Positions 7,440 through 27,714 of a stretch of DNA of 32,900 bases are shown in pieces. Location of the stretch: the NCBI GenBank assembly GCA_026417815.1, contig JAOACN010000408.1:1-32900 (forward strand), read 5' to 3'. Below the pieces are notes generated by a model that was not told the DNA's origin, did no database searches, and was given only the letters and a program-made list of their open reading frames with translations. This stretch comes from Chloroflexaceae bacterium. Its GTDB lineage: Bacteria > Chloroflexota > Chloroflexia > Chloroflexales > Chloroflexaceae. Position 1 is the stretch's first letter; each line of letters starts with the position of its first letter. Position numbers and translations under genes: made by a program.

Positions 7440-7441
7440 AC

Positions 7442-9597: not shown

Positions 9598-9651
9598 TTT
9601 CCCGACCGTGAGGTAACGGGACTCGCCGGAGGCGCCACTAACATAGTGAAG

Positions 9652-9657
9652 TATAAT
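9652..9657 (+). promoter_or_regulatory. Candidate -10 box (perfect TATAAT) 16 nt upstream of the hydrolase fusion gene
   Basis: TATAAT lies in a locally AT-rich patch (acatagtgaagTATAATacaag). No convincing -35 and no obvious SD before the 9674/9680 start. Confidence 0.3.
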
Positions 9658-9673
9658 ACAAGAAACGAGATTT

Positions 9674-11632: not shown

Positions 11633-11649
11633 AGCCGGCCCGGTGGCAC

Positions 11650-11994: not shown

Positions 11995-12053
11995 TCCCAG
12001 CCCCTTCGTGTAACTTGTTGGATGCACCGCTTACTCGCAAGAGGCAAGGAGGT

Positions 12054-13127
12054 ATGGATAACAACCCCAATCTTTCCAGTCAGGTTGAAAACCTGCACGT
12101 ACGCGAACTAACCCCGCTCCAATCGCCGCTGGAGTTGAAACAGCAGTTGCCCCTCAGCCCGACCGCGGCCCGCACTGTGACCACCGCCCGCGAGGCGATC
12201 CGGCGCGTGCTGCGCGGCGAGGACCGGCGGCTGCTGGTGGTGATCGGCCCGTGCTCCATTCACGATCCCGAGGCGGCCCTGGAGTATGCCCGCCGCCTGC
12301 GCCGCCTCCAGGACGACCTCAGCAGCCAGCTCGTGCTGATTATGCGCGCCTATCTGGAGAAGCCCCGCACTACCGTCGGCTGGCGCGGCCTGATCAATGA
12401 TCCGCACCTTGATGGCTCGTTTGACATGCAATCCGGGCTGCGCATTGCTCGCCAGTTGCTCACGGCGATCAACGAACTCGGTATCCCGGTGGCTACCGAG
12501 ATGCTCGACCCGATCAGCCCCCAGTACCTGGACGACCAGATCAGTATGGCCACCATTGGCGCCCGCACCAGCGAGGCCCAGACCCACCGGGCGCTGGCCA
12601 GTGGCGTCTCGATGCCGGTGGGCTTCAAGAACAGCACCGACGGCGGGATCGAGGCGGCCGTCAATGCCTGCGTCTCCGCCGCCGTGCCCCACAGCTTCCT
12701 GGGCATTGACGACCGCGGACGCAGCGCGGTGGTGAAGACCACCGGCAACCCCGATGGCTTTGTCATTCTGCGCGGGGGGCGCCACGGCCCCAATTACTAC
12801 CCCGAATACGTTGTGCGGGCCGCCCGCCTGATGCGCGAGGCCTCGCTCCACCCCGCCGTGATGATTGACTGTAGCCACGCCAACGCTGGCGGCGACTACC
12901 GGCGCCAGGAGACGGTCTGGTACAACGTCGTCGAGCAGGTGATCCACGGCCCAACCCCCATCGTCGGGATGATGGTCGAGAGCAACCTGGAGGAGGGGAA
13001 ACAGCCGTTCCTCGCCGATCGGTCGAAGCTGCGCTATGGCGTCTCCGTTACCGACGGCTGCGTGGGCTGGGCCACCACCGAGTTGCTGCTCCACGAGGCC
13101 CACCTGGCCCTGGAACGGGCGCGGTAG
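12054..13127 (+). CDS. aroG: 3-deoxy-7-phosphoheptulonate (DAHP) synthase, class I
   Basis: 357 aa from ATG 12054, with a strong AAGGAGG at 12046-12052. Class I DAHP synthase sequence: LLVVIGPCSIHD, MRAYLEKPRTTVGWRGLINDP, GARTSEAQTHR, GFKNSTDG, IDCSHANA. Isozyme identity (aroF/G/H) is not determinable. The 147-aa N-terminal extension of the track ORF crosses REP elements and was discarded. Confidence 0.93.
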   Translation: MDNNPNLSSQVENLHVRELTPLQSPLELKQQLPLSPTAARTVTTAREAIRRVLRGEDRRLLVVIGPCSIHDPEAALEYARRLRRLQDDLSSQLVLIMRAYLEKPRTTVGWRGLINDPHLDGSFDMQSGLRIARQLLTAINELGIPVATEMLDPISPQYLDDQISMATIGARTSEAQTHRALASGVSMPVGFKNSTDGGIEAAVNACVSAAVPHSFLGIDDRGRSAVVKTTGNPDGFVILRGGRHGPNYYPEYVVRAARLMREASLHPAVMIDCSHANAGGDYRRQETVWYNVVEQVIHGPTPIVGMMVESNLEEGKQPFLADRSKLRYGVSVTDGCVGWATTELLLHEAHLALERAR

Positions 13128-13204
13128 CGGGCGTCAGGGCAACCCGGACGCACCGGCGCGCGCCGCAACACTTCGGGTTGCTGCGGTCTGCCTCCCGCCG
13201 GGCC

Positions 13205-13237
13205 GGGGCGCGGGGAGGGATCGCCTCCCCGCGCCCC
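13205..13237 (+). terminator. Strong GC hairpin downstream of the DAHP synthase gene (GGGGCGCGGGGAGG-gatcg-CCTCCCCGCGCCCC); candidate terminator
   Basis: Perfect 14-bp stem with a 5-nt loop, 78 nt after the stop codon. It is followed by ccgttctg, which is only a weak U-tract. Confidence 0.4.
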
Positions 13238-13282
13238 CCGTTCTGCAGAGGGCTGCACCCTCCACATCTCCCCCATGCACAA

Positions 13283-13453
13283 CTCTACGTTGTCACTTGC
13301 CGCAGTTTCCGCGGCGAGGAGGCTCGGAGGCGCTGCACCCCTCCGCGCTTTCCTCTTCCTGGTACGGCGCGGCTTCGCTGCGCCGCATCAGGAAGGGAAG
13401 ATCTTCGAGGGCCTGCGGCCCCCGCAACCCCCGCCAGGGGCATAGGAACAAAG
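13283..13453 (+). repeat. ~170-nt structured repeat, copy 1 (MITE-like or ncRNA-like)
   Basis: Aligns by eye at roughly 80 percent identity over its whole length with 19172-19343 in the same orientation. Shared blocks include TTGTCACTTGCCGCAG, CACCCCTCC, CAGGAAGGGAAGATCTTCG, CTGCGGCCC and CGCAACCCCCGCCAGGGGCA. Confidence 0.75.
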
Positions 13454-13572
13454 AAGGCCACGCAGCGAAACCGTGTTTTAGACATAATGCGCGCATCATG
13501 TAACCTTTCGGGGTATACTGAAGAAGAACGCGGCAAGCAACTGGCAAGCGTGGTTGTACGATTACATATGCT

Positions 13573-13857
13573 ATGACCGACGAGCCACAATCAAACAAGC
13601 CGCCGGAGGGCAACGCCCTGGCCTACTGGGCGATTATTGGCACCTCGGCGCTGCTGTGCTTCGCCTGGTTGCTCACCGGCAGTCTGATGTTGACCCTGGC
13701 GATCATCGCCCTGGGGCTGCTGCACCTGGCGCGCCACTTCCCCGAGGCCGAACAGTTTGTGCAGGCCGATCCCATCCTGATGTGGTTACGCCGCATGTCG
13801 CCGCTGATCGTTATCGGGATCGCTACGCTGGTGCTGGCGACACGCTATTTGCGGTAG
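13573..13857 (+). CDS. small integral membrane protein (3 predicted TM helices), unknown function
   Basis: 94-aa ORF with strong GC3 codon bias and three hydrophobic stretches (YWAIIGTSALLCFAWLL, LMLTLAIIALGLL, SPLIVIGIATLVLA). First gene of the plus-strand glycan cluster. No clear SD. Confidence 0.6.
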   Translation: MTDEPQSNKPPEGNALAYWAIIGTSALLCFAWLLTGSLMLTLAIIALGLLHLARHFPEAEQFVQADPILMWLRRMSPLIVIGIATLVLATRYLR

Positions 13858-13906
13858 CCAGGGACGCGGCTTCACCACGCACTACCCCGAGAAACAAGGG
13901 TTTTCC

Positions 13907-13936
13907 GGGGCGGGCTGCGCCCTCCCGGACCCTCCC
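13907..13936. repeat. REP-like family B element (GGGGCGGGCTGCGCCCTCCCGGACCCTCCC)
   Basis: Same core as 9569-9587. The tail CCTCCCGGACCCTCCC is identical to 32528-32543. Confidence 0.7.
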
Positions 13937-14000
13937 ATCGGGCATCATCCCTTCTTCACCTCCCCCTCAGCCGGGTGTCGTCCGGCAGCGCGACGATCCA

Positions 14001-14009
14001 TGCTACAAT
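14001..14009 (+). promoter_or_regulatory. Candidate extended -10 promoter element (TGcTACAAT) upstream of the deacetylase gene
   Basis: TGCTACAAT is read directly from the sequence. It overlaps the track ORF start (14000), which argues for the downstream ATG 14057 (or 14072) as the real start. No good -35. Confidence 0.3.
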
Positions 14010-14056
14010 TGGGCGTTTCGCGAACGGCCCATGGCCATCCGTGCCCTCCAGCACCG

Positions 14057-15961
14057 ATGGCGTCCGATCCGATGGTTTCACGACGAGTGCTTCTCGGCGC
14101 GACGATGGTCAGTCTGCTGGTTGGCGTCCTGGGCGCGTTGCTCTACGCGCAGCAACGGGTGGCCCGATGCGCCTTCGTGCCCCTCGTCGCCGCCGAGTTG
14201 CTACCCAATGCCAGCCTTGTCCCCGGTGAGGCCGCGGGGATGCCCGCCGGCTGGCAGCGCCGCGCCGGGGGCGTGGAACTGCGCGGCCCTGCCGTTGATG
14301 GGCAGGGCTTTGACCTCGACGGCGACGGGCGGGCGCTACAGTTGCTCGGCATTGCCAATTACGCTCAGACCCCGCCGATCCCGGTGCGGCCCGGTGAGCG
14401 GTACTGCTTCAGCGGCTTCACCCTCACCGACTCGGAGCAGCGTTCTCCCACCCGCGCCCGCCTGGTCTTTAGCTGGCGCGATACCTCCGGGGCCACCGTG
14501 AGCGAAGCTGCCACCCTCTGGCAGCCAGTGACCCTCTGGACGCCCGAGGCCCCGCCCCGCGACTGGTCGCGCCTGCAGGGCAGTTTCGTCGCTCCGCCTG
14601 AGGCCCGTTCCCTTGTCGTGCGTATCGAGCCGGCCTCGGATGACCGGATCTACCTGGATGCCATGCACGCGCGCCGGGGGGGTGGGGCCCTTGCCGGCCT
14701 GGCCGCGCCGACCCTCGCCGTCGCCGCCGATCCGCCCCGCCTGGCCCGCTGGCCCCTGGGCCGCCAGGCCGCCGTGGCCTTCACCTTCGACTGGGAAACC
14801 GCCATGGGCGGCCTGATCCACTCGCGCTCGGTCGGCGACCCCAACTACGATAAGGACCCCGAGGCCCGCGGGCTGCGCATGCGCGAGGGGATCACCACCA
14901 CACTGCAACTCTTTCGGCCCTACGGCGTGCGCGCCACCTACTACGCTACCGGCTACAACTTCCTCCTCGGCAACCCCGAGCGCCGTCGCTTTATGGGCGA
15001 CCCGGTGTTCGCCTGGGCCAGCCCGGCCAATGGCTGGATCACCGATCGCTGGACGCGGACCCCCTGGTTCGCCGACGACCCCTTCGGCACCTACCGCAGC
15101 CATCCGGCCTGGTACTTCGGCGACCTGATCCGGCCCCTGCGGGACGCCGGTCACGAGATCCAGAGCCATACCTTCAGCCACCTCTACGGCGGCCTGGCCG
15201 ACGCGGCCACCTGGGCAGCCGATCTGCGAGCCTGGAACGAGGTGGCCGCCGAACGGGGCCTGGCCCCGGCCACCTCCCTCGCCTTCCCCTGGAGCGGCAG
15301 CGCCGGCATGAGCGACGCTAACTGGGACGTGCTTGAACAGGGCGGGATCAGCAGCGTTACCCGGCTGAGTAACCAGATGCAGTACAATCTGTTTCCGACC
15401 GACAGTGACGGCGTGGTGCTCGAACCGCGCTGCCGCTGGCTGCCGGGCCGCGAGGGGCGCATTCTGGCCTGTCCCGACTTCTACCTGACCCCCGAGCGGG
15501 TCAGCCTGGCCCTGCAACAGATTGAACGTGCCATCGCCGCCGGGGGCGCCATTGACCTCTGGGCGCATACCGAGGAGGTCACGGCACCCGAGCAGATCCG
15601 GGCCTGGGAGCGGGTGGTGGAGCGCGTGGCCCGCGACCGGCGGCTCTGGGTGGCGCCCCTCGGCGAAATCGCCGCCTGGCAGGCGGCCCTGGCCACGGTG
15701 CAGGTTGAACCGGTCGCCACGCAGCCGGGCGACGAGGGCATGCTCACCGTGCGCGTCGCCAATCTGAGCGCCGTCGATCTCGCCGATCTGACCCTGCACA
15801 TGCCCGCGAGCACCCGGCGCGTCCTGGTGAACGGCGAGGAACTGGCCCGCGACGAGCGGCCGCTCCCCCACGGACGGGGATGGTGGCCCGCCGCCGCGCT
15901 CGCCACGTTCGATCTGCCCGCGGGCCAGACGGCGGAGGTGCAGGTATGGCTGACGCCGTGA
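14057..15961 (+). CDS. membrane-anchored polysaccharide deacetylase (CE4 / NodB-like) with an N-terminal carbohydrate-binding-like beta-sandwich region
   Basis: A TM helix (VLLGATMVSLLVGVLGALLYA) is followed by a ~180-aa region resembling CBM4/9-type modules (LLPNASL...GW..., ...ARSLVVRIEP...IYLDAMH). Then comes a NodB-like core: AVAFTFDWE, ATYYATGYN, GHEIQSHTFSH, AFPW. The start is uncertain (14000/14057/14072). Confidence 0.8.
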   Translation: MASDPMVSRRVLLGATMVSLLVGVLGALLYAQQRVARCAFVPLVAAELLPNASLVPGEAAGMPAGWQRRAGGVELRGPAVDGQGFDLDGDGRALQLLGIANYAQTPPIPVRPGERYCFSGFTLTDSEQRSPTRARLVFSWRDTSGATVSEAATLWQPVTLWTPEAPPRDWSRLQGSFVAPPEARSLVVRIEPASDDRIYLDAMHARRGGGALAGLAAPTLAVAADPPRLARWPLGRQAAVAFTFDWETAMGGLIHSRSVGDPNYDKDPEARGLRMREGITTTLQLFRPYGVRATYYATGYNFLLGNPERRRFMGDPVFAWASPANGWITDRWTRTPWFADDPFGTYRSHPAWYFGDLIRPLRDAGHEIQSHTFSHLYGGLADAATWAADLRAWNEVAAERGLAPATSLAFPWSGSAGMSDANWDVLEQGGISSVTRLSNQMQYNLFPTDSDGVVLEPRCRWLPGREGRILACPDFYLTPERVSLALQQIERAIAAGGAIDLWAHTEEVTAPEQIRAWERVVERVARDRRLWVAPLGEIAAWQAALATVQVEPVATQPGDEGMLTVRVANLSAVDLADLTLHMPASTRRVLVNGEELARDERPLPHGRGWWPAAALATFDLPAGQTAEVQVWLTP

Positions 15962-15988
15962 GTTCGTGTCAACAGCGTGAGGCCCACT

Positions 15989-17890
15989 ATGGCCGGGACG
16001 GTTGAACAGGGCGCCGGGCGGCTGGCGCGCCTGCGCGCGAGCTTCGGGCTGCTCGGCGCGCCACTGCTGGGCCTGAAACTGTACCAGTGGCTGTGGCTGC
16101 TGCTGGCGGTCACGGGCGCCCTCGCCGTTGCCGCGCCGCGGGTCCTCTCGCAGCCGGTGACCTACGTCGCCCGCGCCGAGACACGCTTTGACCTGCGGCG
16201 CTACGGCCCGATCTACGAGCCGGTGGCCCCGGGCGTCAGCGGCCTCGACATCGCCATCAACGACGCCACCGAGTCCCTGCGCCAGGACCGGCTGGCGCGG
16301 GCCGATGTGCGCTTCGGTCGCCCGGACTTCCGCGTGGTCTTCGCGCCGCGCGAGCCAGGAGTGGTGGAGGTGCGCGGGATCGGCCCCACCGCCGCCGAGG
16401 CCCAGGACCTCGCCAACGCCGGGGCCGAGGCCCTGGCGCGGCACGTGCGCGCCGCTGGCGGGCGCGAGATCCTGCGCAACATGCTCGGCTGGGAACTCTG
16501 GCTGGCCCTGGAACCCGAGGGCCGCCCCGCGCCCACACCCTTCGATACGCTCCTGCGCGACATTCTGCGCGTAAACGCCTTTCCCATGTCGCGCGACCTG
16601 GAGCCGGTCTCCACCCCCCGACTGATCGCCGACCTGCCCCGCGAGGAGCTTAGCGACCTGGCCCGCGCCCTCGAGGCGCGCTACGACCTCTGGCGCTTCG
16701 CCATCAATACCCGCAATGCCACTCTCGACGCCCTGTGCGGCACGACCGGGGCAGAGGGAACCGCCGCGCGCGAACGGGCCCTCGAAACCTGCGCCCGCGC
16801 CAATGCCGTTGTCCATGCGGAGCTGATCGAGCGGAACCGCGAAATCACCCGTCTGCGGGCCATTCAGGCGACCCTGGATTACGTCCTCGTCACCTACGCG
16901 GCGCGCTTCGACCCCGACCAGCCTTCGGCGGCCCACCGTGTCGCCGCTGCCCTGCCCACGGCGCCCGAGCCGCGCTACGTGCCCCAGCTCCTGGCCCTGG
17001 CGGCCCTCGTTGGCGTTGCCATCGGCGTGGCCGGCGTGGCCATGGACCGCAGCGCCGGCATTGCCACTCGCGTCAGCGAGATCCTGGGCTACCGCGAACT
17101 GATCCGCAACCTCGTGCTGCGCGACCTGCGCGCCCGTTATAAGGGCAGCGCCCTCGGCTACCTCTGGACGCAACTGGCGCCCCTGGGCATGATGCTGGTC
17201 TACGTGCTGGTCTTCAGCCTGCTGTTGCCCGGCAGCATCGCCATGTTCCCGATCTTCCTCATCGTCGCCCTGTTGCCGTGGAACTTCACCGCCGAGGCGG
17301 TAACAGGCGGCGCTCGCAGCGTGATTGACAACGCCGCCCTGATCAAGAAGGTCTACTTTCCCCGCGAGGTGCTGCCCCTGACGGCAGTGTTCTCGAGCAT
17401 GGTCAACTACCTGCTCTCGCTGCCGATGATGCTGCTGCTCATGATCGCGGTGCAACTCCTGACCATTGGCCGGCTCAACTTCGCCTGGACCTTCGCCTAC
17501 CTGCCGGTGTTGCTGGTCATCCAGGTGATCATGCTCTCCGGCATGGCCCTCTTTCTGGGCGCGGTGGCGGTCTTCTTTCGCGACGTGGTGCACCTGGTGG
17601 GCATTCTGGTGAGCATCTGGTTCTTTCTGACGCCGGTGATCTACCCGCTGGGTGTTTTCGGCGATGGCCTGGCCGCCCGGCTGGTGCGCTGGCTGAACCC
17701 CATGGCCTCGCTGACCGAGTTCTACCGCGAAATCCTCTACGGCAACCCGGTTCCCGTGGGCCAGATCCCCACGCCGGGCCTGCCGGCCCTCGATAGCGTG
17801 CTGCGCGTGAGCATCACCGCGGGCCTGTTCCTGGTGATCGGCATGTGGGTCTTCCAGCGCGCGGCGCATCACTTCGGAGAGGCGCTGTGA
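15989..17890 (+). CDS. wzm: fusion: Wzz/PCP-like (polysaccharide co-polymerase) N-terminal domain plus ABC-2 type polysaccharide-export permease (Wzm/TagG-type)
   Basis: The C-terminal ~270 aa are a typical ABC2_membrane permease ([27 protein letters not shown]..., [22 protein letters not shown]). The N-terminal ~360 aa have PCP topology. TM1 ([20 protein letters not shown]) is followed by PVTYVARAE and [26 protein letters not shown] helical region and a Pro-rich stretch ([11 protein letters not shown]) then lead straight into TM2. GAGG lies 6 nt before ATG 15989, and GTG 15977 is an alternative start. Confidence 0.8.
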
Positions 17891-19119
17891 GTCCGGTGAT
17901 CGAGTTCGAGCAGGTCAGCAAGTACTTCGTTCGCCACCGCGTCGAGCGCCGGACGGTGCAGGAGTGGGCCATCGGCCTGTTTCAGCGGCGCCCGCCGGGC
18001 GACGATGCCTTCTGGGCCCTGCGCGATGTCAGCTTCTGCGTCGAGCAGGGACAGAGTTTTGGCCTGGTGGGCCACAATGGCGCCGGCAAGAGCACGGCCC
18101 TGAAGCTGATTATGCGCATTCTCGAACCGAATAGCGGGACGGTACGGACGCGGGGCCGGATCGCCGCCCTGCTCGAACTGGGAAGCGGCTTCCATCCCGA
18201 GTTGAACGGCCTGGAAAACGTGTTCCTGTACGGCTCGCTCATGGGCCTCAGCCGCCGCGAGATGGAACGCCGCCTGCCCGCGATCGTCGAGTTTGCCGAC
18301 ATCGGCGACTTTCTGGAGACCCCGATCAAGCACTACTCGTCGGGTATGTACACCCGCCTGGCCTTCTCCGTGGCCACCGCGGTAGACCCCGATGTGCTGA
18401 TCACCGACGAGGTGCTGGCGGTGGGCGACGAGGCCTTTCAGCGCAAGTGCCTGGAGCGCATCTACCACTTCCGCCGGGCCGGGAAGACGATCATCTTCGT
18501 CTCCCACGCTCTGGAAGTGGTGCGCTCCCTGTGCGATACGGCCCTCTGGCTCGACCACGGCGAGGCCCGCGCCTGCGGTCCGGCCGGGAAGGTAATTGAC
18601 GCCTACCTGGCCGATGTGAACCGCAAGGAGCAGGAACGCCTCGCGGCGGACCATCCCGATCTGAGCCTGCCCGCGACCGAGGAGGCGGTCTTCCGCCGCG
18701 GCAGCCGCGAGGTGGAGATTGTTCGCGTCCAGCTCCTCGATGCCGCAGGGGAGGAGCGCAGCGTTTTTCACACTGGTGAGGCGCTGACCATTCGGATGCA
18801 CTACCAGGCCCATGAACGGATCAGCGACCCCGTGTTCGGCGTGGGCATCTTTCATGAAAATGGCACCTGGCTCAGCGGCCCCAACACCGGCTTCGACGAG
18901 GTGCCCATCCCCGCCATCGAGGGATACGGGCAGATTGACTACCACCTGCCGTCGTTACCGCTCAACACGGGGCGCTTTCAGATCAGCGTCGCCGTGGTTG
19001 ACCGGACCCAGACCCATGTGTATGACGTTCACGATCGCCTTTACCCGTTCGTGGTGCATGGATCGGGCCGTGATCGCTACGGGATGGTCGCCATTCCGGG
19101 GGAATGGCGCGTGCGCTAA
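17887..19119 (+). CDS. wzt: polysaccharide-export ABC transporter ATP-binding protein (Wzt/TagH-type) with a C-terminal Wzt_C-like glycan-binding domain
   Basis: Walker [10 protein letters not shown], signature YSSGM and Walker [12 protein letters not shown]. The C-terminal ~140 aa (from about 18691: [12 protein letters not shown]...[10 protein letters not shown]...FGVGIF...) match the beta-sandwich extension of O-antigen Wzt proteins. The GTG start overlaps the permease TGA (GTGA at 17887-17890), suggesting translational coupling. Confidence 0.9.
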
Positions 19120-19171
19120 GCTGGTTTCGCCGCGTGGCCCTTCGCGTAGCCTTCGGAGGAGGCGCAGTTAC

Positions 19172-19343
19172 CTCTATTTTGTCACTTGCCGCAGGTTCCG
19201 CTGCGAAGAGGTCTGGAAGGGCTACACCCCTCCGAGCTTTCCTGTTCCTGGCGCGGCGGGGAGAATCCGCGCCGCGCCAGGAAGGGAAGATCTTCGGGGG
19301 TCTGCGGCCCTCGCAACCCCCGCCAGGGGCAACGTGACAAAGT
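19172..19343 (+). repeat. ~170-nt structured repeat, copy 2 (MITE-like or ncRNA-like)
   Basis: Same orientation as copy 1 (13283-13453). Terminal inverted repeat TTTGTCACTTGCC ... GGCAACGTGACAAA. Central 12-bp hairpin CCTGGCGCGGCG...CGCCGCGCCAGG. Internal palindrome GAAGATCTTC. Confidence 0.75.
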
Positions 19344-19422
19344 AGGGTCAGGCAAACGACCATCCAGCGAGACCAGGTCCACGTGCAATGGCCGGAGGCG
19401 CCGGGTTATCAGGACAACAGCT

Positions 19423-20385
19423 ATGGCAGAACAGAATCCCCAGGACCTCTACAACGCCTTTTACTACCGAACCGGTTGTGGACCGCCCTACCAGCGTGAT
19501 GAACACTGGATGGCCTTCTTTGGACGGATCGCCGAGACGATCGTCGAGCGCATCAGTCCACGCAGTGTCCTCGATGCCGGTTGCGCCTTCGGCTTGCTGG
19601 TGGAGCAACTGCGGCTCCTGGGGGTTGAGGCTGAGGGTGTGGATATATCCGAATTCGCGATTGCCAGCGCTCCGGAGACGGTCCGGCCACATGTACGGGC
19701 AGCTTCGATAACCGAACCCTTCGGACGCCGGTACGACTTAATCGTCTGCATTGAGGTGCTGGAGCACATGCCCCAACGGGACGCCGAGGCTGCCATCGCC
19801 AATCTGACCGCGCACAGCGACGACATCCTGTTCGCCTCCTCGCCGCTCGATTTCAAGGAAGCGACCCATGTCAACGTCCATCCGATTGAACACTGGGTCG
19901 AACTGTTCGCCACGCATGGGTTCGTGCGCGATGTTGACTTTGATGCCAGCTTCGTTACCCCCTGGGCCATGCGCCTGCGCCGCCGCGCCGATCCGCTGCC
20001 CCGCATCGTGCGCGATTACGAGCGGCGGTTCTGGGAAGTATGGAAGGCTTCGACCGACCTGCGCGAACTGGTATTGAACCAGCGCAAACAGATCGAAGCC
20101 GCGCACGAAAACTGGCAGAACTGCACCCGCTCGCTGGAAGCGTGCAACCGGTCGTTGAGCGAGACGCAACGCGAATACGCCCAGAGCGTCGCAAAGGGAC
20201 GGCAAGACGTTGAGGATCTCAAGGCCTACATAGCGCGCCTTGAAGCTGATCTGGCGCAGAAAATCGCGCACATCAACGAACTGAAGACCATCATTGCGCG
20301 CCTGGAGTCTGGACGCGTGATGCGAATCCTCCGCGCCCTGGAGGCCCGGCGCGCGCGCTTTTTTCGCTCCGGCACGAGGGACTGA
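19423..20385 (+). CDS. class I SAM-dependent methyltransferase with a C-terminal coiled-coil tail
   Basis: 320 aa from ATG 19423. SAM motif I is VLDAGCAFG, followed by YDLIVCIEVLEHM. The C-terminal ~110 aa are heptad-rich (RELVLNQRKQIEAAHENWQ...LKAYIARLEADLAQKIAHINELKTIIARLESGRVMRILR). The N-terminal extension of the track ORF crosses repeat copy 2 and was discarded. Confidence 0.85.
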   Translation: MAEQNPQDLYNAFYYRTGCGPPYQRDEHWMAFFGRIAETIVERISPRSVLDAGCAFGLLVEQLRLLGVEAEGVDISEFAIASAPETVRPHVRAASITEPFGRRYDLIVCIEVLEHMPQRDAEAAIANLTAHSDDILFASSPLDFKEATHVNVHPIEHWVELFATHGFVRDVDFDASFVTPWAMRLRRRADPLPRIVRDYERRFWEVWKASTDLRELVLNQRKQIEAAHENWQNCTRSLEACNRSLSETQREYAQSVAKGRQDVEDLKAYIARLEADLAQKIAHINELKTIIARLESGRVMRILRALEARRARFFRSGTRD

Positions 20386-20443
20386 CGCCGGACAGCGCCC
20401 TGCCCCCGGGGATGGCGCAAACTCTACTACCGAGAACCTGCTA

Positions 20444-22981
20444 ATGACCTCAGCAACTGTCTCCGTCGTGGTTGTCAACCTCAATGGTCGTCACCATCTG
20501 GAAAGCTGTTTCCGGTCCCTGCTTGAGCAGGATTATCCGGCGCACCTGGTCGAACTGATCCTGGTTGACAACGGCTCTACCGATGGTTCGGATCAGTTGA
20601 TGGCGGAACGTTTTCCGTCGGTCAGACTGGTCAGGAACGAACGGAACACAGGCTTCGCGCCAGCGGTGAACCAGGGCGCGCGCGTCGCCAGCGGGCAGTA
20701 TCTGGCGCTGATCAATAATGACATGCGCCTGGAACGTGGCTGGATCAGCGCCATGGTCGCCACACTGGAGGCGCATCGTGAGCGCGGCGTGGTCTGTGTC
20801 GGATCGCGGATCCTGGACTGGGAAGGAAAGCATATTGACTTTATCAGCAGTGGCGCAGGGTTTACCGGTTTTGGCTATCAGATGTACCACAACCTGCCGG
20901 TCGAGGCGATCGATCTCGGTGAACACGAGGCGCTTTTCGCCTGCGGCGGCGCCATGCTGGTCGATCGCGCCATCTTTCTCGAAACCGGAGGTTTTGATGA
21001 AGACTTCTTTGCCTACTATGAAGACGTAGATTTTGGCTGGCGCCTGTGGTTGATGGGCTATCGCGTCCTGATCACCCCGGCGGCGCTCGTGTATCATCGG
21101 CATCATGGCACCTCGAGTCGTATGCGGAAGGCGCAGCTATACAAGCTGTTTGAACGCAATGCCATGATGATGATCATAAAGAACTACGAGGAGGCTCACC
21201 TCTATCGTGTCCTCAGCGCGGCGTTCTTGTTACTGTTTCAGCGCATCGTCGGCCATGCAAAGGACGATGTGCCCTGGGAGGGGTTCGATTTTGGCGCCGA
21301 TGGGCCACGGCGGACGCTCAGCGAGGAGGTGAGCGTCCCCGCGCACGCCTTCAGCCCGATTGCCGCGATGAAGGATCTCTATGAGCACTTTCCCCGCCTC
21401 TGGGCGAAACGCCAGCATATTCAGGCTCGCCGGGCGCGGGCCGATGAAGAGATTTTTTCCCTCTTTCGCAACCCGTTTTCGGGTATCCACCATCCTGAAG
21501 CATCTCCATTGCTTACTCGTGTGCTCCTCGACAACCTGGGAGTCAGTTCGATGCTGTCACAGCACCGGAAACGTCGGGTACTGGTAGTGAGCGGCGACCC
21601 GATTACGGAGAACCTGGCCGGGGTTGGGATCCGCGCCGTGGAACTGGCGCGCGGATTGGGCCAGGTCTGCGAGGTGACCCTGGCCGCCCCGGAGAAGGTC
21701 GCGCTGGAACTGCCCGGCGTGCAGAGTGTAGCCTTTGAGCGTGACAATCAACAGTTGATGGCCAATCTGGTCGAGTACGCCGAGACGATCATTGTGCAAG
21801 GCTATACCTTGTACCGGTATCCAGTTATTGGCGCCGCAGACAAATACGTGGTGGTGGATCTGTACGATCCATACTACCTTGAGGGACTGGCGCTCTTTTC
21901 CCGCAAAGGACCGGAGCGCCATCGCGACGATCTCCGCGCCACGCTTGATACCATCGCCGACCAGTTGCACCGCGGCGACTTCTTTATCTGCGCCAGCGAA
22001 CGGCAGCGGGATCTCTGGCTCGGCGCGCTCCTGGCGCTCGGACGTCTCGACCTGACGAATTACGTTCAGGATCCCGCCTTCCGCTCATTGATTGATGTGG
22101 TACCATTTGGGTGCCCCGAGACGCCCCCGGTGCACACCCGCCGTGTGCTGAAGGGAGTCGTCCCCGGGATCACCGAAGGCGATACCGTAGCCCTGTGGGG
22201 AGGTGGCATCTGGGACTGGCTCGACCCGCTGACGGTTATCCGGGCGATGGCGCTGGTGCGCGAACAGCGACCTGATCTGAAACTGTTCTTTCTGGGCAAT
22301 ACGCATCCGAACACTGCGGATGTACCGGAAATGCAGATGTACGGCCAGGCCCTCGCCCTGGCCAGGGAGCTCGATCTTCTGGGACGAACCGTATTCTTTA
22401 ATGACCGCTGGGTGCCCTACGCCGAACGCGCCAATTATCTCCTGGAAGCGGATGTCGGCGTCAGCGCCCATCTCGATCACCTCGAAACCCGCTTCGCCTT
22501 TCGCACCCGCATGCTTGACTACATCTGGGCCGGCCTGCCGATGGTGGTAACGGCGGGCGACACCCTCGCCGACACCGTGATGCATCAAGGACTGGGTCAG
22601 GTCGTACCCATCGGCAACCCTGATTGCTTCGCCCGCGCATTGCTGGAGCTTACGAGTCAGCCCCAGGCTCGCCAGCGTTACGCCCCCGCCTTCGCGTCGG
22701 CGCGGGCCACCTTCTCGTGGCAGCGGGCGCTCGAACCCCTGGTCGCCTTCTGCGCCAATCCGCGCTACGCTGCGGATCGCGTGACTGCGACGCTGGCAGA
22801 AACGCCGCCTCCTTCCGCGTCACGGGTCGATCGCGAGGCCGAACTCGAAGCAATGATCGCGGAAAAGAACGCCCACATCGCCCGGCTGGAGGACCTGATA
22901 CGACGCCTGGAGTCGGGGCGGATCATGCGTTTGCTCGGACTGGTCGAGCGATTGCGCCGCCGACGCCGCCCGGCCCTGTGA
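20444..22981 (+). CDS. bifunctional glycosyltransferase: N-terminal GT2 (GT-A) domain plus GT4/GT1-like (GT-B) domain plus C-terminal coiled-coil tail
   Basis: GT2 domain: VSVVVVNLNG...LILVDNGSTDGS...NTGFAPAVNQG...LINNDMRLE...YEDVDFGWR. GT-B domain: RVLVVSGD...GVGIRAVELA..., LFFLGNTHP..., ETRFAFRTRMLDYIWAGLPMV. Tail: AELEAMIAEKNAHIARLEDLIRRLESGRIMRLLGLVERLRRRRR. Confidence 0.88.
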   Translation: MTSATVSVVVVNLNGRHHLESCFRSLLEQDYPAHLVELILVDNGSTDGSDQLMAERFPSVRLVRNERNTGFAPAVNQGARVASGQYLALINNDMRLERGWISAMVATLEAHRERGVVCVGSRILDWEGKHIDFISSGAGFTGFGYQMYHNLPVEAIDLGEHEALFACGGAMLVDRAIFLETGGFDEDFFAYYEDVDFGWRLWLMGYRVLITPAALVYHRHHGTSSRMRKAQLYKLFERNAMMMIIKNYEEAHLYRVLSAAFLLLFQRIVGHAKDDVPWEGFDFGADGPRRTLSEEVSVPAHAFSPIAAMKDLYEHFPRLWAKRQHIQARRARADEEIFSLFRNPFSGIHHPEASPLLTRVLLDNLGVSSMLSQHRKRRVLVVSGDPITENLAGVGIRAVELARGLGQVCEVTLAAPEKVALELPGVQSVAFERDNQQLMANLVEYAETIIVQGYTLYRYPVIGAADKYVVVDLYDPYYLEGLALFSRKGPERHRDDLRATLDTIADQLHRGDFFICASERQRDLWLGALLALGRLDLTNYVQDPAFRSLIDVVPFGCPETPPVHTRRVLKGVVPGITEGDTVALWGGGIWDWLDPLTVIRAMALVREQRPDLKLFFLGNTHPNTADVPEMQMYGQALALARELDLLGRTVFFNDRWVPYAERANYLLEADVGVSAHLDHLETRFAFRTRMLDYIWAGLPMVVTAGDTLADTVMHQGLGQVVPIGNPDCFARALLELTSQPQARQRYAPAFASARATFSWQRALEPLVAFCANPRYAADRVTATLAETPPPSASRVDREAELEAMIAEKNAHIARLEDLIRRLESGRIMRLLGLVERLRRRRRPAL

Positions 22982-23028
22982 CCTGGAGGCGTACATCCGG
23001 CTGTACCTCCCGTTGCGTAAAGGATGCT

Positions 23029-23940
23029 ATGACGCGCTTTGATGTCGTGAAACAGCGTGTGCGCTCGGCAATTCGGGCCCTCGCTGGCGTCGAGGAGGTT
23101 GCTCTGCCCGTAACGGCCCCGCCGCCCGGTCCCCCGGCAGCGGTCTATCAACCGTCCGGGCATATCCTGGATTACTATGTGACGGAGGCGCCGAGTCCCC
23201 AGACCGCCCTCGATCTCTTCAAGGGCGAATGGACCTCTCGGCTCCCTGCTCCACTCGACCAGGCCCGGGCGGGCTCGATCGGCCTCTTCGACGATCCACG
23301 CATCACATGGGCCGTTGAGCAACTCGGCGGTGTTCAACACTGCTCGGTGCTCGAACTCGGGCCGCTTGAAGGGGGCCACTCGTATATGCTCGAACGCGCT
23401 GGCGCGGCGGAAGTGGTGGCAATTGAAGCCAACGCGCGCGCCTTTCTGAAATGTCTGATCGTCAAAGAGTTGCTTGGACTCCAGCGCGTCCATTTCCTCT
23501 GTGGTGATTTTGTGGCATACCTGCGCTCCGCGCCGCGTCGTTTTGACATTATCGTGGCCAGCGGCGTGCTCTACCATATGCGCAATCCGGCTGAACTGAT
23601 TGCCCTCATGGCCCGGGCCAGCGATCGGATCTTTGTATGGACCCACTACTACGACGCGGCGATTATCCGCTCCTCGCCCATCCTGGCGCCCAAGTTCCCC
23701 TCCAGTTTCACCGCCGAATACGCCGGTTTCACCCACACCCTCTACCGCCAGGAATACCAGTCAGCACTCGATGAGTTGAAGTTCTGCGGCGGTAGCGCCG
23801 AATACAGCGCCTGGATGAGCCGCGAGGAGTTGCTCGCCTGCGTGCGCCATTTCGGCTTCGGCGATCTCCGGATTGCCTTCGACGCCCCTGATCACCCCAA
23901 CGGCCCGAGCCTTGCCTTCGTCGCTACACGTGGGCCATGA
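23029..23940 (+). CDS. class I SAM-dependent methyltransferase (second methyltransferase of the cluster)
   Basis: 303 aa from ATG 23029. The Rossmann-type motif VLELGPLEGGHSYML..AAEVVAIE is followed by FDIIVASGVLYHMRNP. The upstream part of track ORF 22624.. overlaps the GT gene out of frame and was discarded. Confidence 0.75.
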   Translation: MTRFDVVKQRVRSAIRALAGVEEVALPVTAPPPGPPAAVYQPSGHILDYYVTEAPSPQTALDLFKGEWTSRLPAPLDQARAGSIGLFDDPRITWAVEQLGGVQHCSVLELGPLEGGHSYMLERAGAAEVVAIEANARAFLKCLIVKELLGLQRVHFLCGDFVAYLRSAPRRFDIIVASGVLYHMRNPAELIALMARASDRIFVWTHYYDAAIIRSSPILAPKFPSSFTAEYAGFTHTLYRQEYQSALDELKFCGGSAEYSAWMSREELLACVRHFGFGDLRIAFDAPDHPNGPSLAFVATRGP

Positions 23941-23958
23941 TGAAAGTCGAGGAGTACC

Positions 23959-26037
23959 ATGCACCAATCCCGTCCCCTCTCTCGCCTCACTCGCCCCGCC
24001 CTGCTGTTCTGGGCGATCCTCCTCCTGGTGGGCCAGGCCGTGCCCCTCGGCGGGCGCACGGCCGCGCAGGGCTCGGCAAGCATCGGCTTTGCGGCCCCTG
24101 ACGCTTTGACCGTATCCGTGGATGCCGGTGATGACTTCGCAACCACGGTTCTCGGCGATCCCTGGGACATGGATCGCGCTCGCGATATTCAGTATGAAAT
24201 CGGGTTTGCCGGTATAGGCGCTGCGAATGGGATATGGTCGGGAACCTATAGCGGTGTGGATCACGCTTCGGGCGCCCAGACCAGCGGCTACCTCTTTCCG
24301 CTTTTCCAGGGCTTTAGCACTCCCATTCAGGGACTGTTGAGCCAGGAACTGCCCCTGAACAAAGTCGGCGCTCAGGACCGCTATGCCATTGATGCCTCAC
24401 GGTACACCCGACTGACGTACCGCATGTCCGTTACGCCGCGTTCCGCGCAGGGGCCGTTTGCGGTTATGTGGACCAACGCCAGACCAGTGACATGGCCCGA
24501 CGGCAGCCAGCGCTTCGCGGACCTGGATGCCTGTCAGGGGACCACGGCGTTCTTCCCCTGGAATGGCTGGCGGGTGTACGATTTTGATATGACGCGGCCC
24601 AATGGGGCGCCCAACGCGCGGGCGGGCGCCTGGCAGGGTCTGGTCCGTGGCCTGCGCATCGATCCGCTTGTCATCCCCCAGGCCGGGGTTCAGGTCAGTG
24701 TCGACTGGATCCGCCTGAGCGACCCCGCCTCGGCCCCGACGATCGCCATTCCCTGGAGCGCCGCCGGCGCGGCGGCAAACGACCGGGTTGACATCTACAT
24801 AGCGGACAATCCCCAGGGACGCGATGCCGCGCCCCTGGCCCACGGCCTCCCTGTCAGCGCCGGTCGCTATGAACTGGCAACCAGCATCTTGCCGCCTGGC
24901 CAGCATTACTTCCAGTTGCGACTGAAGGACGGCGCCAGCCAGAATGGCTGCACCGTCACACGGGCCGTTAGTAACTGGGTGGGCCCGCTTACCATCACGC
25001 CCGCGCCGATCCTCACCTTCGCCCGGCCGAGCATGTTGAGCGGCCCCGATTATGCCCTCTCCGAGCTTGGGCGCGCCTGGGACATGCAGTCGGGCGATGA
25101 TATTGCCGCCGTCAACCCGCCGGGTTGGCCCCCGACCATCGCTGATGTGCGCTTCAACGATGGGATCCTGACCGCGCGCGCCGTGTACCATCCCACGGTA
25201 AACGGGCAACCCTTGAACGACTCCGACGCGCAACTCTGGCTGCGGGTCAATCCTCAACGGCCAATTGACACCACCTACTATCGCTACTTCTCAGTACGCT
25301 TTAAAGTTGATTTTCCTCCATCGCGAGACATCAACTGGGCCATTAAGAATGGCTGGGGTATGCGTATCTTCTGGTGGGATCGCGGGCTCACCAGCGATGG
25401 GTCTGAAACCAAGTACGGAACCTACTACGAAGGGTGGAACATCTACTCGGTTGATCTGGCGCGGTCCTTCCCGCCACTCCCCCTGAGCGACCCGCGTCAG
25501 GCCGACAATATCCTGACCCCGCGCGAGGAAAGCACGTTCCCCAACCAGGCCGGCTGGACCCAGATCCGCCAGGCCCGCGCCCTGCGTTTCGATCCGCTGG
25601 AGACAACCCCGGCGGCGGTGGGCACGGGGGCGGATGTGTTTCAGATCGACTGGATCCGGCTCACCGCCAACGATGAGGTGAGGCGTGGGCAGCCATTCAC
25701 TGTCGAAGCGGGCGTGAACGTGCCCCCTTCAACCCTGCGGTCCGTTACGTTTTTCTATACGAACAATCGCCAGGACCCCTTCCAGAGTCCTGCCCGGCCC
25801 GTCGCCGCCGAACCGCCGGCAGCCACTGGCCCTACCAACGCCTTTCGTGTGCATCTGCCCCTCATGGGGAACAGGACACTGGCCAGAAACCCGGTCCCGA
25901 TTGTCGGCAACCCGTTGACGTTTCAATGGGACACCTCGACCGTGGCGCCGGGTACGTACTACGTGTGTGCCAGGGTCGAAAGCGCGTCCCGCGCCTACAG
26001 TTACTGTAGCGAGACACCGGTGGTCGTGCGGCCGTAG
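23959..26037 (+). CDS. secreted protein of unknown function with two copies of a ~200-aa domain, each followed by an Ig-like segment
   Basis: GAGGAG lies 4 nt before the ATG. Signal peptide: RPALLFWAILLLVGQAVPLGG..AAQG. The internal duplication is GDPWDM...YTRLTYRMSV...WRVYDFDM...LRIDPL...VDWIRLSD against GRAWDM...YRYFSVRFKV...WNIYSVDL...LRFDPLE...IDWIRLTAND. I recognised no named family. Confidence 0.8.
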   Translation: MHQSRPLSRLTRPALLFWAILLLVGQAVPLGGRTAAQGSASIGFAAPDALTVSVDAGDDFATTVLGDPWDMDRARDIQYEIGFAGIGAANGIWSGTYSGVDHASGAQTSGYLFPLFQGFSTPIQGLLSQELPLNKVGAQDRYAIDASRYTRLTYRMSVTPRSAQGPFAVMWTNARPVTWPDGSQRFADLDACQGTTAFFPWNGWRVYDFDMTRPNGAPNARAGAWQGLVRGLRIDPLVIPQAGVQVSVDWIRLSDPASAPTIAIPWSAAGAAANDRVDIYIADNPQGRDAAPLAHGLPVSAGRYELATSILPPGQHYFQLRLKDGASQNGCTVTRAVSNWVGPLTITPAPILTFARPSMLSGPDYALSELGRAWDMQSGDDIAAVNPPGWPPTIADVRFNDGILTARAVYHPTVNGQPLNDSDAQLWLRVNPQRPIDTTYYRYFSVRFKVDFPPSRDINWAIKNGWGMRIFWWDRGLTSDGSETKYGTYYEGWNIYSVDLARSFPPLPLSDPRQADNILTPREESTFPNQAGWTQIRQARALRFDPLETTPAAVGTGADVFQIDWIRLTANDEVRRGQPFTVEAGVNVPPSTLRSVTFFYTNNRQDPFQSPARPVAAEPPAATGPTNAFRVHLPLMGNRTLARNPVPIVGNPLTFQWDTSTVAPGTYYVCARVESASRAYSYCSETPVVVRP

Positions 26038-26175
26038 CGCAATGCCAGCGCGGCGCGTCTGACGCGGTCAACGTCGCCAGTGTTCCCGGAGGTCCGCCCC
26101 CTTCCGGATCCTCCCGCCGCGGGTAGACGCTCTGGCACTTCGTCGGAGCCTCCGTGCCGGGCCGGCCCTGGCGTG

Positions 26176-26216
26176 GTAAGGCCGAAGCATTGGCGCAGCC
26201 AATGCCTCGGCCTTAC
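26176..26216. repeat. Palindromic element, family D, second copy (GTAAGGCCGAAGCATTGGC-gc-aGCCAATGCCTCGGCCTTAC)
   Basis: Same arms as 4814-4854, with a compensatory CATCGG/CCGATG to CATTGG/CCAATG change and one A/C mismatch. Again located between convergent genes. Confidence 0.7.
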
Positions 26217-26373
26217 GCGCGCGCCGTCAGATTGGCTCAGACGCAGCGCCAGCGAAGCCAGAACCCGCCGCGGGCGCAACGAGCGGAGCGCGCTGCCCTC
26301 CGTCCATCTCCCGGACGGACACTGTGGAAGGCTGCGCAACCGGACTATCCCCCGGGCCCTAATCCAACAAGGT

Positions 26374-27714
26374 TCACCTCGGCGCGCCAGCCTGAAGCCG
26401 TGCCAGGTGATAACAGAGCAGGGCCTGGCGCACCTGGGTCTCGAGTACGGCCTGCTGGGCATGGCGATCAATCTGCTCCTGCAGTTGCGCCAGGCTGCGC
26501 TGCGCCGCGAGATTGAAGCGAGTCTGCTGGTGCATAAGGGGAAGCACGTACCAGCGGGTTGCAATGCCGTTCCAGGCGCGACGGAAGGCCGCGACCAGAG
26601 GCACCCGCGAGTGAAAGCGATGCTCGCGCAGGACCGCCTCTGTCTCCGCCTCGGCAATCAGGCCGGCAAGGGCGGCGCTCGTCGGAACACCCAGGAGGTC
26701 GCGGGCCGCTGCCGGCCACTCGGTGGGCCGGTCTTGCAGCGTGGCCGTGACCGTCGCCAGGATGCGCCCGTAGCGCAGAATGGTCGCGCGCATATCGGCG
26801 TCAGGCACGGCCAGCCCGTGGGGTAACGACTGGCGATAGACCAGACTGGCCACGGCCCGATCGAGCGCGGAGGCCTGGCGCAAGCGGTAGGACTCGGCGG
26901 GCGCGAAGCCGTTCCAGAGCGTCTGCCAGTCCATATGCTTGCAGGCGAAGCGCAGGCGGTTCAGATGGTGGTAGTAGTAGAACGCCCCGCTAAACGATCC
27001 GGTGGATGACGCCTCGCCGTGACGCAGAACCGATCGGGGCGTGTACCAGCACTCCGCTCCAAGCTCTCGCGCGCGCCAGCAGAGATCAACGTCCTCAAAA
27101 TAGCCGGGAAAGAAGCCCGGGTCCAGGCCATCCAGGCGTTCCCACAGCGCGCGTCGCAGCGCCAGCGACGCGCCGGTGACAAACTCAACCACCTCTGCGC
27201 TCTCGTACCGTCCGGTGTCGCGCTCGCCCGCTCCGCGATGATGCGCCAGAACATCCGGCCAGCGCAACGCGCCGCCGGCATGGCGGAGTCGCTGTCCATC
27301 CAGATCAACGATCTTGCTGCCGGCAATGCCGCAACTCGGCCTGGCCAGCATCTCCACCAGGGCCGCCAACCAGTGGGGGTCAACCACGGTGTCGGGATTC
27401 AAGAGTGCCAGGATCTCGCCACTGCTGGCAGCTACGCCGCATCGCACCCCGCCACTGAAGCCGAGGTTGGTTTCCTGCGGCAGCAGAAGCGCCTCGGGCA
27501 GCAATTGCCGGACCAGGGCAACACTGTCGTCCTGGGAGGCATTATCCACAACCACGATTTGCGGGGGCGGATCGTAGCACAGGGCGCGCAGGGCCGCACA
27601 ACACGCGGTCAGATACGGAGCACTGTTGTGGGTAACGAGAATGATCGAGACGTTGGGGTTCACGCTGGCCCCTGACAGTTGAGCAGCGCCCGAAGCATCG
27701 AGAAGCTCCTGCAC
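26374..27714 (-). CDS. GT2-family glycosyltransferase (rhamnosyltransferase-like) with a ~170-aa C-terminal extension
   Basis: VSIILVTHNSAPYL...VVVDNASQDDS...NLGFSGG...LLNPDTVV...FEDVDLCWRA. GTG start at 27714. An internal GTG giving MNPNVSIILV is an alternative start. Confidence 0.85.
   Translation of the reverse strand: MQELLDASGAAQLSGASVNPNVSIILVTHNSAPYLTACCAALRALCYDPPPQIVVVDNASQDDSVALVRQLLPEALLLPQETNLGFSGGVRCGVAASSGEILALLNPDTVVDPHWLAALVEMLARPSCGIAGSKIVDLDGQRLRHAGGALRWPDVLAHHRGAGERDTGRYESAEVVEFVTGASLALRRALWERLDGLDPGFFPGYFEDVDLCWRARELGAECWYTPRSVLRHGEASSTGSFSGAFYYYHHLNRLRFACKHMDWQTLWNGFAPAESYRLRQASALDRAVASLVYRQSLPHGLAVPDADMRATILRYGRILATVTATLQDRPTEWPAAARDLLGVPTSAALAGLIAEAETEAVLREHRFHSRVPLVAAFRRAWNGIATRWYVLPLMHQQTRFNLAAQRSLAQLQEQIDRHAQQAVLETQVRQALLCYHLARLQAGAPR

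Follow-up and report, generated by a model that had tools for sequence, protein, structure and literature searches.

A putative surface-glycan export locus of Chloroflexales encoding a polysaccharide co-polymerase-fold domain fused to a Wzm permease

The described systems closest to the locus reported here are ATP-binding cassette (ABC) exporters of surface glycans. The Escherichia coli O8/O9a systems and the WzmWzt transporter of Aquifex aeolicus combine an ABC-2 permease with a Wzt ATPase that has a C-terminal carbohydrate-binding domain. The S-layer (surface layer) glycan (slg) system of Geobacillus stearothermophilus is a Gram-positive case of Wzm/Wzt, with a methyl-capped chain, a binding domain on Wzt and the multi-domain methyltransferase-glycosyltransferase WsaE. 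In the group 2 capsule system KpsMT-KpsE, the C-terminal transmembrane (TM) helix of the polysaccharide co-polymerase (PCP) KpsE packs in a pocket that the KpsM interface helix helps to form with its N-terminal part (PMC11041684). Here, nine adjacent genes (g1-g9) are described at 13573-27714 of a 32,900-nucleotide stretch from Chloroflexaceae bacterium (assembly GCA_026417815.1, contig JAOACN010000408.1, positions 1-32,900; the whole stretch is called the window below), one of which encodes a PCP-fold domain and a Wzm permease in a single polypeptide. Cryo-electron tomography (cryo-ET) of Chloroflexales shows a diderm-like envelope, and the genomes lack lipopolysaccharide (LPS), Lol and Bam genes (PMC7332563; PMC13319060). 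We consider it rather probable that the locus encodes synthesis and ABC-transporter-dependent export of a cell-envelope glycan that varies between strains of this order.

The fused protein is g3, encoded on the plus strand. Its C-terminal part (17071-17890) is a Wzm ABC-2 permease, where the Pfam family ABC2_membrane (PF01061) matches residues 376-588 with 53 bits and is confined to the C-terminal ~260 residues. The N-terminal part (15989-17070) is PCP-like. In an AlphaFold2 model of residues 1-365 (pLDDT 88.6, pTM 0.76, with 22 homologues in the alignment) a TM helix is followed by an alpha/beta base, a long helical hairpin and a beta strand, and then by a second TM helix. The two TM helices (35-57 and 335-360 in the model, with hydropathy peaks at 35-58 and 333-358) bracket a large extracytoplasmic domain. 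Foldseek comparison with the Protein Data Bank (PDB) rendered only PCPs among the top 50 matches (Wzz, WzzE, Wzc, KpsE and FepE), with probability 1.00. The best match was WzzB 6rbg (E 5e-5), and the KpsE chains of the KpsMT-KpsE complex were among the top fold matches. The second TM helix carries the motif P327-x2-P330-x-P332-R333-x12-G346-x3-G350 when 22-24 homologues are compared; three positions (P327, G346 and G350) never vary, and at least 90% of the sequences keep P330, P332 and R333. The classical PCP signature of this helix is PX2PX4SPKX11GX3G. The g3 motif resembles it in its prolines and glycines, though the spacing differs.

The original prediction, which was made from the DNA letters and open reading frames (ORFs), had proposed a Wzz/PCP-like domain fused to Wzm. 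The model and the structural matches agree with a PCP fold, but KpsE on KpsMT, not Wzz, is the closer parallel for a PCP associated with an ABC exporter. No description of a PCP::Wzm fusion was found in the literature, and likewise none of the locus in Chloroflexus. The fusion is an undescribed arrangement, and it makes the locus a new form of ABC-transporter-dependent glycan export.

Full-length homologues of the fusion (~633 amino acids, 54-95% identity) occur in Chloroflexus aurantiacus, Oscillochloris, Ca. Chloroploca, Ca. Viridilinea and other Chloroflexaceae, and every one of them is annotated merely as "ABC transporter permease". In a scan of species-representative genomes the fusion was found in Chloroflexaceae, Roseiflexaceae, Kouleothrix, Herpetosiphonaceae, Thermoflexus and deep Chloroflexia, a distribution that fits the Chloroflexota host proposed from the sequence. 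Anaerolineae, Ardenticatenia, Caldilineae and one Paenibacillus match the Wzm part only (residues ~357-637). A profile of the N-domain gave 33 matches among 1.84 billion representative proteins; the full-length ones (570-640 amino acids) are all fused and the shorter ones are presumed to be fragments. A stand-alone PCP gene beside the unfused Wzm of Anaerolineae, Ardenticatenia or Caldilineae was also considered, and no complete unfused copy was present among the 33 matches. Because the matches are few and fused, the domain appears to be a lineage-restricted invention.

The ATPase gene g4 (17887-19119, plus strand) overlaps the stop of g3 by 4 nucleotides. Its product contains the Pfam domains ABC_tran and Wzt_C (PF14524, approximately 18694-19092), the latter with 104.7 bits against a cut-off of 30.4. 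In a PDB search g4 aligns full length, with both domains, to Wzt of A. aeolicus (8dku/7k2t, E 8e-64), which bears out the predicted C-terminal glycan-binding extension. TarH was matched with 1.2e-58 and KpsT more weakly, with 4e-33. For the permease part of g3 the closest solved relative is A. aeolicus Wzm (6m96, E 1.9e-19), followed by the mycobacterial galactan Wzm (9qfx, 4.4e-14) and TarG (1.2e-8); KpsM was unmatched in this search. No Poly_export, KpsS or KpsC domains were found among the window proteins. Judged by these sequence matches, the transporter is of the O-antigen (Wzm/Wzt) type and not of the KpsMT type.

The class of the transporter is important for the explanation that the locus exports a free exopolysaccharide of capsule, sheath or fibril type, with the PCP-like domain marking a system similar to that of group 2 capsules. 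PCPs on ABC exporters are otherwise known from capsule systems alone, such as KpsE, and the best-named NCBIfam match of g2, the gene preceding g3, is HfsH, a deacetylase of adhesive exopolysaccharide, although its 26.9 bits are far under the 400-bit cut-off. Filaments of Ca. Viridilinea also show a dense fibrillar outer layer (PMC7332563). However, besides the absence of a KpsM match and the weaker match to KpsT, the Wzt here has a cap-reading domain, and cap-gated Wzt systems give short, length-controlled chains. Moreover, neither an outer membrane polysaccharide export (OPX) protein such as KpsD nor KpsS or KpsC is among the proteins of the window. Export of a free exopolysaccharide is therefore regarded as unlikely compared with the cap-gated envelope glycan pathway.

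Immediately upstream of g3, in every Chloroflexales locus whose flank was covered, lies g2 (14057-15961, plus strand), which encodes a membrane-anchored extracytoplasmic enzyme. Its AlphaFold2 model (pLDDT 89.5) consists of one N-terminal TM helix, a beta-sandwich similar to the carbohydrate-binding modules (CBM) CBM22 and CBM16, a barrel of the NodB fold (carbohydrate esterase family 4, CE4) and a C-terminal beta domain. The Pfam family Polysacc_deac_1 is barely above its cut-off (24.3 against 23.1 bits), and the structural matches are clearer: the barrel is matched by a putative deacetylase of M. smegmatis (3rxz, TM-score 0.72, E 1.8e-12) and further by PuuE, HP0310, 1z7a, 3qbu and 3s6o, and the N-terminal domain by CBM22, CBM16 and CBM4 modules with TM-scores of ~0.65. 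Invariant positions in the g2 alignment include D245-W-E247, S370-H371-T-F373-S-H375 and H504. In canonical NodB proteins motif 1 has a tandem Asp (TFDD) and motif 2 is the metal-binding HxxxH (PMC10967932), and g2 keeps both His of motif 2 (H371 and H375) as well as the first Asp of motif 1. Metal-dependent hydrolysis, most likely deacetylation, is plausible from the modelled fold. A functional precedent is the CE4 enzyme PplD, which removes N-acetyl groups from the linkage unit of rhamnopolysaccharides that streptococci export by ABC transporters (PMC8807736). The CBM-like and CE4-fold parts and the membrane anchor had been foreseen, but the enzyme had been taken for an addition to the export system. 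Instead, g2 is the tightest-linked partner of the fused permease and hence belongs to the core.

The gene following g3 is usually Wzt. The fused permease is accompanied by Wzt alone, amid unrelated genes and with no adjacent g2, in Thermoflexus and in a deep Chloroflexia genome, suggesting that the transporter is the ancient core and that the link to g2 is a feature of Chloroflexales. These genomes also help to evaluate whether the N-domain of g3 is a regulatory or scaffold module, merely PCP-folded, that docks g2 or a ligase or senses the state of the wall. The strict g2-g3 synteny in Chloroflexales, the low TM-scores to true PCPs and the fact that a fusion gives just two copies per transporter would suit such a module, and KpsE is dispensable for inner-membrane translocation (PMC11041684). 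On the other hand, the occurrence of the fusion with Wzt but without an adjacent g2 in Thermoflexus and deep Chloroflexia indicates a role of the N-domain that is independent of g2, and the PCP signature of the second TM helix is conserved. A scaffold or sensor is considered quite unlikely, and a PCP-type role in glycan export is preferred.

Comparisons with 89 related loci fetched besides the window (designated by L numbers) show which parts different lineages have in common: only g2-g3 (often with g4), methyltransferases of the g5 type and the GT-B half of g6. The core gene order is kept in dozens of Chloroflexales genomes, in line with the conservation of the neighbourhood that the original prediction called for. 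No characterised locus type with the same architecture was found, and the architecture is not that of plain TagGH (NCBIfam matches were sub-threshold only). The nine genes had been described as one coherent set. They are real and adjacent, but according to tblastn across the loci they constitute several evolutionary units. A single conserved unit of nine genes was rejected because g1 is found in near relatives only, g7 in one cassette type (L086 and L088), and g8 and g9 are separable. A 3.3-kb contig binned as 'Candidatus Gracilibacteria' (L032, JAAUTF010000710.1) encodes Wzm, Wzt and a methyltransferase 64-67% identical to those of the window; mis-binning of a Chloroflexales fragment is the most likely origin.

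The border between conserved and variable genes is visible in the closest relatives. L084 and L085, with a Wzm 95% identical to that of the window, are about 86-92% identical at the DNA level over 5685-19119, ending at the stop codon of Wzt. Beyond 19119 a part of g5 still aligns with 70% identity, and past it nothing aligns. Past Wzt, L084 instead encodes a stand-alone GT-B glycosyltransferase (GT), a 336-amino acid GT2, a 1031-amino acid double GT4 and an 825-amino acid protein. The more distant L086 (84% identity) keeps the gene order of the window throughout, and g7, g8 and g9 occur together with one type of cassette. Read from these alignments, g5-g9 constitute an exchangeable, serotype-like cassette beside conserved export genes, as in loci for O-antigen and other surface glycans.

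A structured 175-nucleotide repeat, D1, is located at 13283-13457 (plus strand), before g1, and a second copy of 175 nucleotides, 82% identical, at 19172-19346 (plus strand), where the conserved export genes give way to the variable cassette. L084 and L085 have D1 only in front of the g1 homologue (7331-7494). Alignment folding predicts several hairpins in D1, and the 13.1-13.6 kb leader that contains it has no credible Rfam family, just spurious matches to eukaryotic miRNA and lncRNA. D1 might be a promoter or leader used in common, or else a site of recombination with a loose resemblance to JUMPstart elements.

The first gene of the cassette, g5 (19423-20385, plus strand), encodes a predicted S-adenosylmethionine (SAM) methyltransferase (Pfam Methyltransf_23/12/25/11) with a coiled-coil-type tail of ~110 amino acids. 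It is followed by g6 (20444-22981, plus strand), in which a GT2 domain (residues 7-242), a GT-B domain (residues ~375-770) and the shared C-terminal tail (residues 795-845) are combined according to Pfam, and by g7 (23029-23940, plus strand), a second SAM methyltransferase with a CmoB/Methyltransf_9-like fold in Pfam and NCBIfam. Residues 192-299 of g5, before the shared motif, are heptad-rich and poor in Pro and Gly, and residues 209-311 give a sub-threshold, SMC-like NCBIfam match. Over the last 30 residues of their coiled-coil-type regions, g5 and g6 have 60% identity (E 7e-9), so the two proteins have the same tail, as had been proposed. The tail motif, KNAHIxxLExLIxRLE[SN]GR[VIL]MR[LI]L with basic residues after it, recurs also in 11 of the 89 related loci, where methyltransferases and GT-B proteins have it at their C-termini. 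The tail probably brings g5, the candidate chain terminator, and the polymerase together at the membrane.

The GT-B half of g6 (residues 375-828) is nearly universal among the loci by tblastn, has no sequence match in PDB, and is a separate protein of 594-599 amino acids in C. aurantiacus and L084. Homologues of the g5-type methyltransferase were found in ~15 loci and those of g7 only in L086 and L088. The homologue of g5 is split in L086 (13381-14626) into a 277-amino acid methyltransferase ORF and a 104-amino acid ORF with the coiled-coil tail, either because of a frameshift or assembly error or because the tail is a naturally detached module. In Ca. Viridilinea halotolerans (L088, 296-4093) a protein of 1265 amino acids contains a methyltransferase, two GT2 and one GT1. 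This is a terminator-polymerase fusion in the style of WsaE or WbdA-WbdD within the same locus type.

The last two genes are convergent. The product of g8 (23959-26037, plus strand) is predicted to be secreted or anchored, with a hydrophobic segment at residues 10-32 and a duplicated domain of ~230 amino acids. The internal duplication is weak (24% identity over 238 columns, E 1e-4) and both copies end with DWIRL. No match to g8 was found in Pfam, in NCBIfam at threshold or among PDB sequences, and its family comprises 68 homologue clusters of which none is functionally named, the named ones being "hypothetical" or "uncharacterised". The gene g9 (26374-27714, minus strand) encodes a GT2 (Pfam Glycos_transf_2, 76.6 bits) and is a transcription unit of its own, behind the rpoC terminator at 27837-27798. 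The N-terminal signal, the weak repeat and the Pfam match thus agree with the predicted pair of a secreted, family-less protein with a duplication and a convergent GT2. The g8 gene is always paired with a convergent GT2, and the pair is kept in L086, L087 and L088; it closes the locus of Viridilinea halotolerans (L088) and is far from the transporter in Oscillochloris ZM17-4 (L087). This recurrence at the end of a locus or far from the transporter suggests a separable two-gene module.

A secreted protein in a glycan locus might be an acceptor, and the locus would then glycosylate a surface protein like the slg clusters of Geobacillus and Paenibacillus, with g8 as the candidate. In Geobacillus, methyl-capped S-layer glycans are exported by Wzm/Wzt. 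The g8 proteins form a secreted, uncharacterised surface-protein family that is always found among GT and methyltransferase genes, some relatives have the surface-protein domains FG-GAP, Big_7 or Y_Y_Y, and the closest Wzm outside Chloroflexota in the genome scan is that of a Paenibacillus. An S-layer has been observed in Ca. Viridilinea, but cryo-ET shows C. aggregans and Roseiflexus without one, though these genera carry the core (PMC7332563). Furthermore, most loci with the g2-g3-g4 core are without g8, g8 can be distant from the core as in L087, and no O-oligosaccharyltransferase or Wzy_C-type ligase is encoded within the island. Glycosylation of an S-layer protein is for these reasons considered the least likely of the explanations, and the envelope glycan pathway is the one elaborated here.

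In that pathway, the domain evidence suggests that cytoplasmic glycosyltransferases, namely the conserved GT-B of g6 and the GT2 domains of the cassette, would elongate a chain on a lipid carrier, with the initiating enzyme encoded outside the locus. The non-reducing end might then be capped by the g5 methyltransferase, and the common last 30 residues of g5 and g6 might co-localise terminator and polymerase at the membrane. The C-terminal domain of Wzt would read the capped end and license export through Wzm, above which the fused PCP-fold domain would form a periplasm-facing cage or chimney, like KpsE around KpsMT. In this export step the fold and the fusion are what has been observed. The cage would pass the polymer to the outer envelope layers, and g2 would act on the glycan extracytoplasmically after export, with de-acetylation as the most likely reaction; these two steps, like capping and co-localisation, are inferred.

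Several findings weigh against this pathway. The TM-scores of the g3 N-domain to PCPs are low (0.2-0.37), although low scores are to be expected of a flexible, elongated monomer. The N-domain has no Pfam match even at E 10, the Wzz/GNVR profiles included, and a PDB profile search at E 10 gave no PCP match. The domain has thus been identified by fold comparison alone, because the Pfam and PDB sequence profiles are blind to it; as modelled, it has the fold and the topology of a PCP but not the sequence profile. A fusion also implies two PCP domains per transporter dimer, compared with the KpsE octamer. In g2, motif 1 reads TFDWE, where the second Asp is replaced by Trp and an invariant Glu is next, and the closest structural kin of g2 are a NodB subclass with unproven substrates. 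In some loci, that of C. aurantiacus among them, Wzt has its binding domain yet no g5 homologue is present, and g5 was rejected as a homologue of WbdD since the best PDB matches are Mg-protoporphyrin and UbiG methyltransferases, with no WbdD at E 0.01. The likeness to O8/O9a that had been proposed is therefore an analogy here rather than family membership. Pairs of g2 and g3 without an adjoining Wzt occur in Oscillochloris sp. ZM17-4 (L003), in Roseiflexus (L019-L021) and in L025 and L026, so that their ATPase must come from another place in the genome or from a different system that shares it. Finally, the window encodes no polymer, carrier, initiating transferase or ligase of LCP or WaaL type, and no pore for the outer layer.

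A more far-reaching version of the pathway is that PCP::Wzm-Wzt and its CBM/NodB partner build or feed the outer membrane-like layer of Chloroflexales, which is free from LPS and BamA, as a minimal trans-envelope conduit for glycans or glycolipids that evolved independently of the Lpt and OPX routes known from classical diderms, with the strain-variable cassette acting as an O-antigen. This seems rather unlikely at present.

The nine ORFs have coding-type third-position bias (GC3 0.72-0.89, in a window with 62-73% G+C) and all are present where they were predicted. Pfam, AlphaFold2/Foldseek and hydropathy support the domains listed for them, and the refined start codons are 14057 (g2), 15989 (g3), 17887 (g4), 19423 (g5) and 23029 (g7). 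By hydropathy, g1 has ~3 membrane segments, g2 one N-terminal anchor, g3 2 + 6 TM helices and g8 an N-terminal signal, and g4, g5, g6, g7 and g9 are soluble. The first gene, g1 (13573-13857, plus strand, GC3 0.85), encodes a small membrane protein of 94 amino acids with hydrophobic stretches at residues 15-56 and 75-93 and no Pfam or NCBIfam match. Its homologues are 90-94% identical and were found by tblastn only in L084-L086 and not in the other loci. NCBIfam gave sub-threshold matches only for all nine proteins and no characterised equivalog.

The island is flanked by a gene for DAHP (3-deoxy-D-arabino-heptulosonate 7-phosphate) synthase upstream and by rpoC (minus strand) downstream, the rpoC terminator being strong with an 18-bp stem. 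No Rfam family reached the gathering threshold in the whole window, a tRNA scan found no tRNA and a sigma-70 promoter scan gave zero sites. A GH18 (glycoside hydrolase family 18, chitinase-like) gene and a Zincin_1 metallopeptidase-like gene are located upstream of the island (6174-7867, minus strand) and are syntenic in close relatives. Two genes before the island, at 9674-11632 (plus strand), a protein of 652 amino acids combines an alpha/beta hydrolase with an APP1-type phosphatidate phosphatase catalytic domain and may be a lipid-handling enzyme; its position is kept in L084-L086.

Short palindromes are also repeated in the window. A near-perfect 43-nucleotide hairpin, GTAAGGCCGAAGCAT...ATGCTTCGGCCTTAC, is found in the convergent gap between g8 and g9 (26167-26216) and, 21 kb away, at 4805-4854, and is probably a bidirectional terminator or an element similar to repetitive extragenic palindromic (REP) sequences. 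A 66-nucleotide G+C-rich palindrome with the core GGGAGGGTCTGGGAGGGC...GCCCTCCCAGG is repeated at 5926-5991, 9542-9607 and 11938-12003, apparently in intergenic positions, and looks like a dispersed repeat of REP type.

The locus, with its core of CBM + NodB enzyme, PCP::Wzm and Wzt and its serotype-like variable part, is a concrete and lineage-wide candidate for studies of this envelope. A conserved export module that is predicted to span the periplasm is notable in hosts that have a diderm-like outer layer yet lack LPS, Lol and Bam. PCP-fold proteins in this phylum escape current sequence profiles and are annotated just as "ABC transporter permease". The single polypeptide fixes the stoichiometry and the contact geometry of PCP and permease, making the fusion attractive for structural study of the cooperation between PCPs and ABC-2 transporters.

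Comparison with the exporters of mycobacterial galactan and with TagGH/TarGH shows a homologous permease and ATPase. The solved ATPase chains of the mycobacterial and TarGH systems (260-280 amino acids) align to the nucleotide-binding part of g4 only and are thus without a cap-reading domain of Wzt_C type, and no PCP fusion is known from either the mycobacterial galactan or the TagGH/TarGH systems. The streptococcal Rgp/Gac systems have in common with the locus a monoderm-type ABC-dependent wall glycan and an extracytoplasmic CE4-fold enzyme (PplD; PMC8807736). However, PplD is outside the top 50 structural matches of g2, which differs by its CBM-like domain and the TFDWE motif. Neither a PCP nor a Wzt_C domain is known from the streptococcal rhamnopolysaccharide transporters. 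The slg system is approached by the methyltransferase-GT2-GT2-GT1 fusion in the related Chloroflexales locus L088, which is WsaE-like in style, but the island has no O-oligosaccharyltransferase of WsaB type and does have the PCP fusion and the NodB enzyme.

KpsMT-KpsE, with its class-3 PCP cage, resembles the locus in having a PCP-fold protein on an ABC-2 exporter. Here, in contrast, a single polypeptide is found, 2 copies per transporter are expected instead of 8, the transporter is of the Wzm/Wzt type, KpsD/OPX, KpsS and KpsC are missing and there is no detectable sequence similarity to KpsE. By analogy, the covalent fusion of PCP and permease would fix a junction similar to that of KpsE and KpsM. 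With O8/O9a and Aquifex WzmWzt the locus has the permease and the ATPase with its carbohydrate-binding domain in common, and with O8/O9a also a methyltransferase, here with a putative coiled-coil tail, beside multi-domain glycosyltransferases and the serotype-like variable content of glycosyltransferases. It differs in the fused PCP-fold domain of ~365 amino acids on the permease, in a methyltransferase that is not a WbdD homologue, in the putative coiled-coil tail that is found on a glycosyltransferase too and in the extracytoplasmic CBM + NodB enzyme of the core. The acceptor cannot be lipid A-core because the host has no LPS pathway (PMC7332563). On the proposed reading, the system unites cap-gated export in the style of O8/O9a with a KpsE-like PCP conduit, two paradigms that have been held separate.

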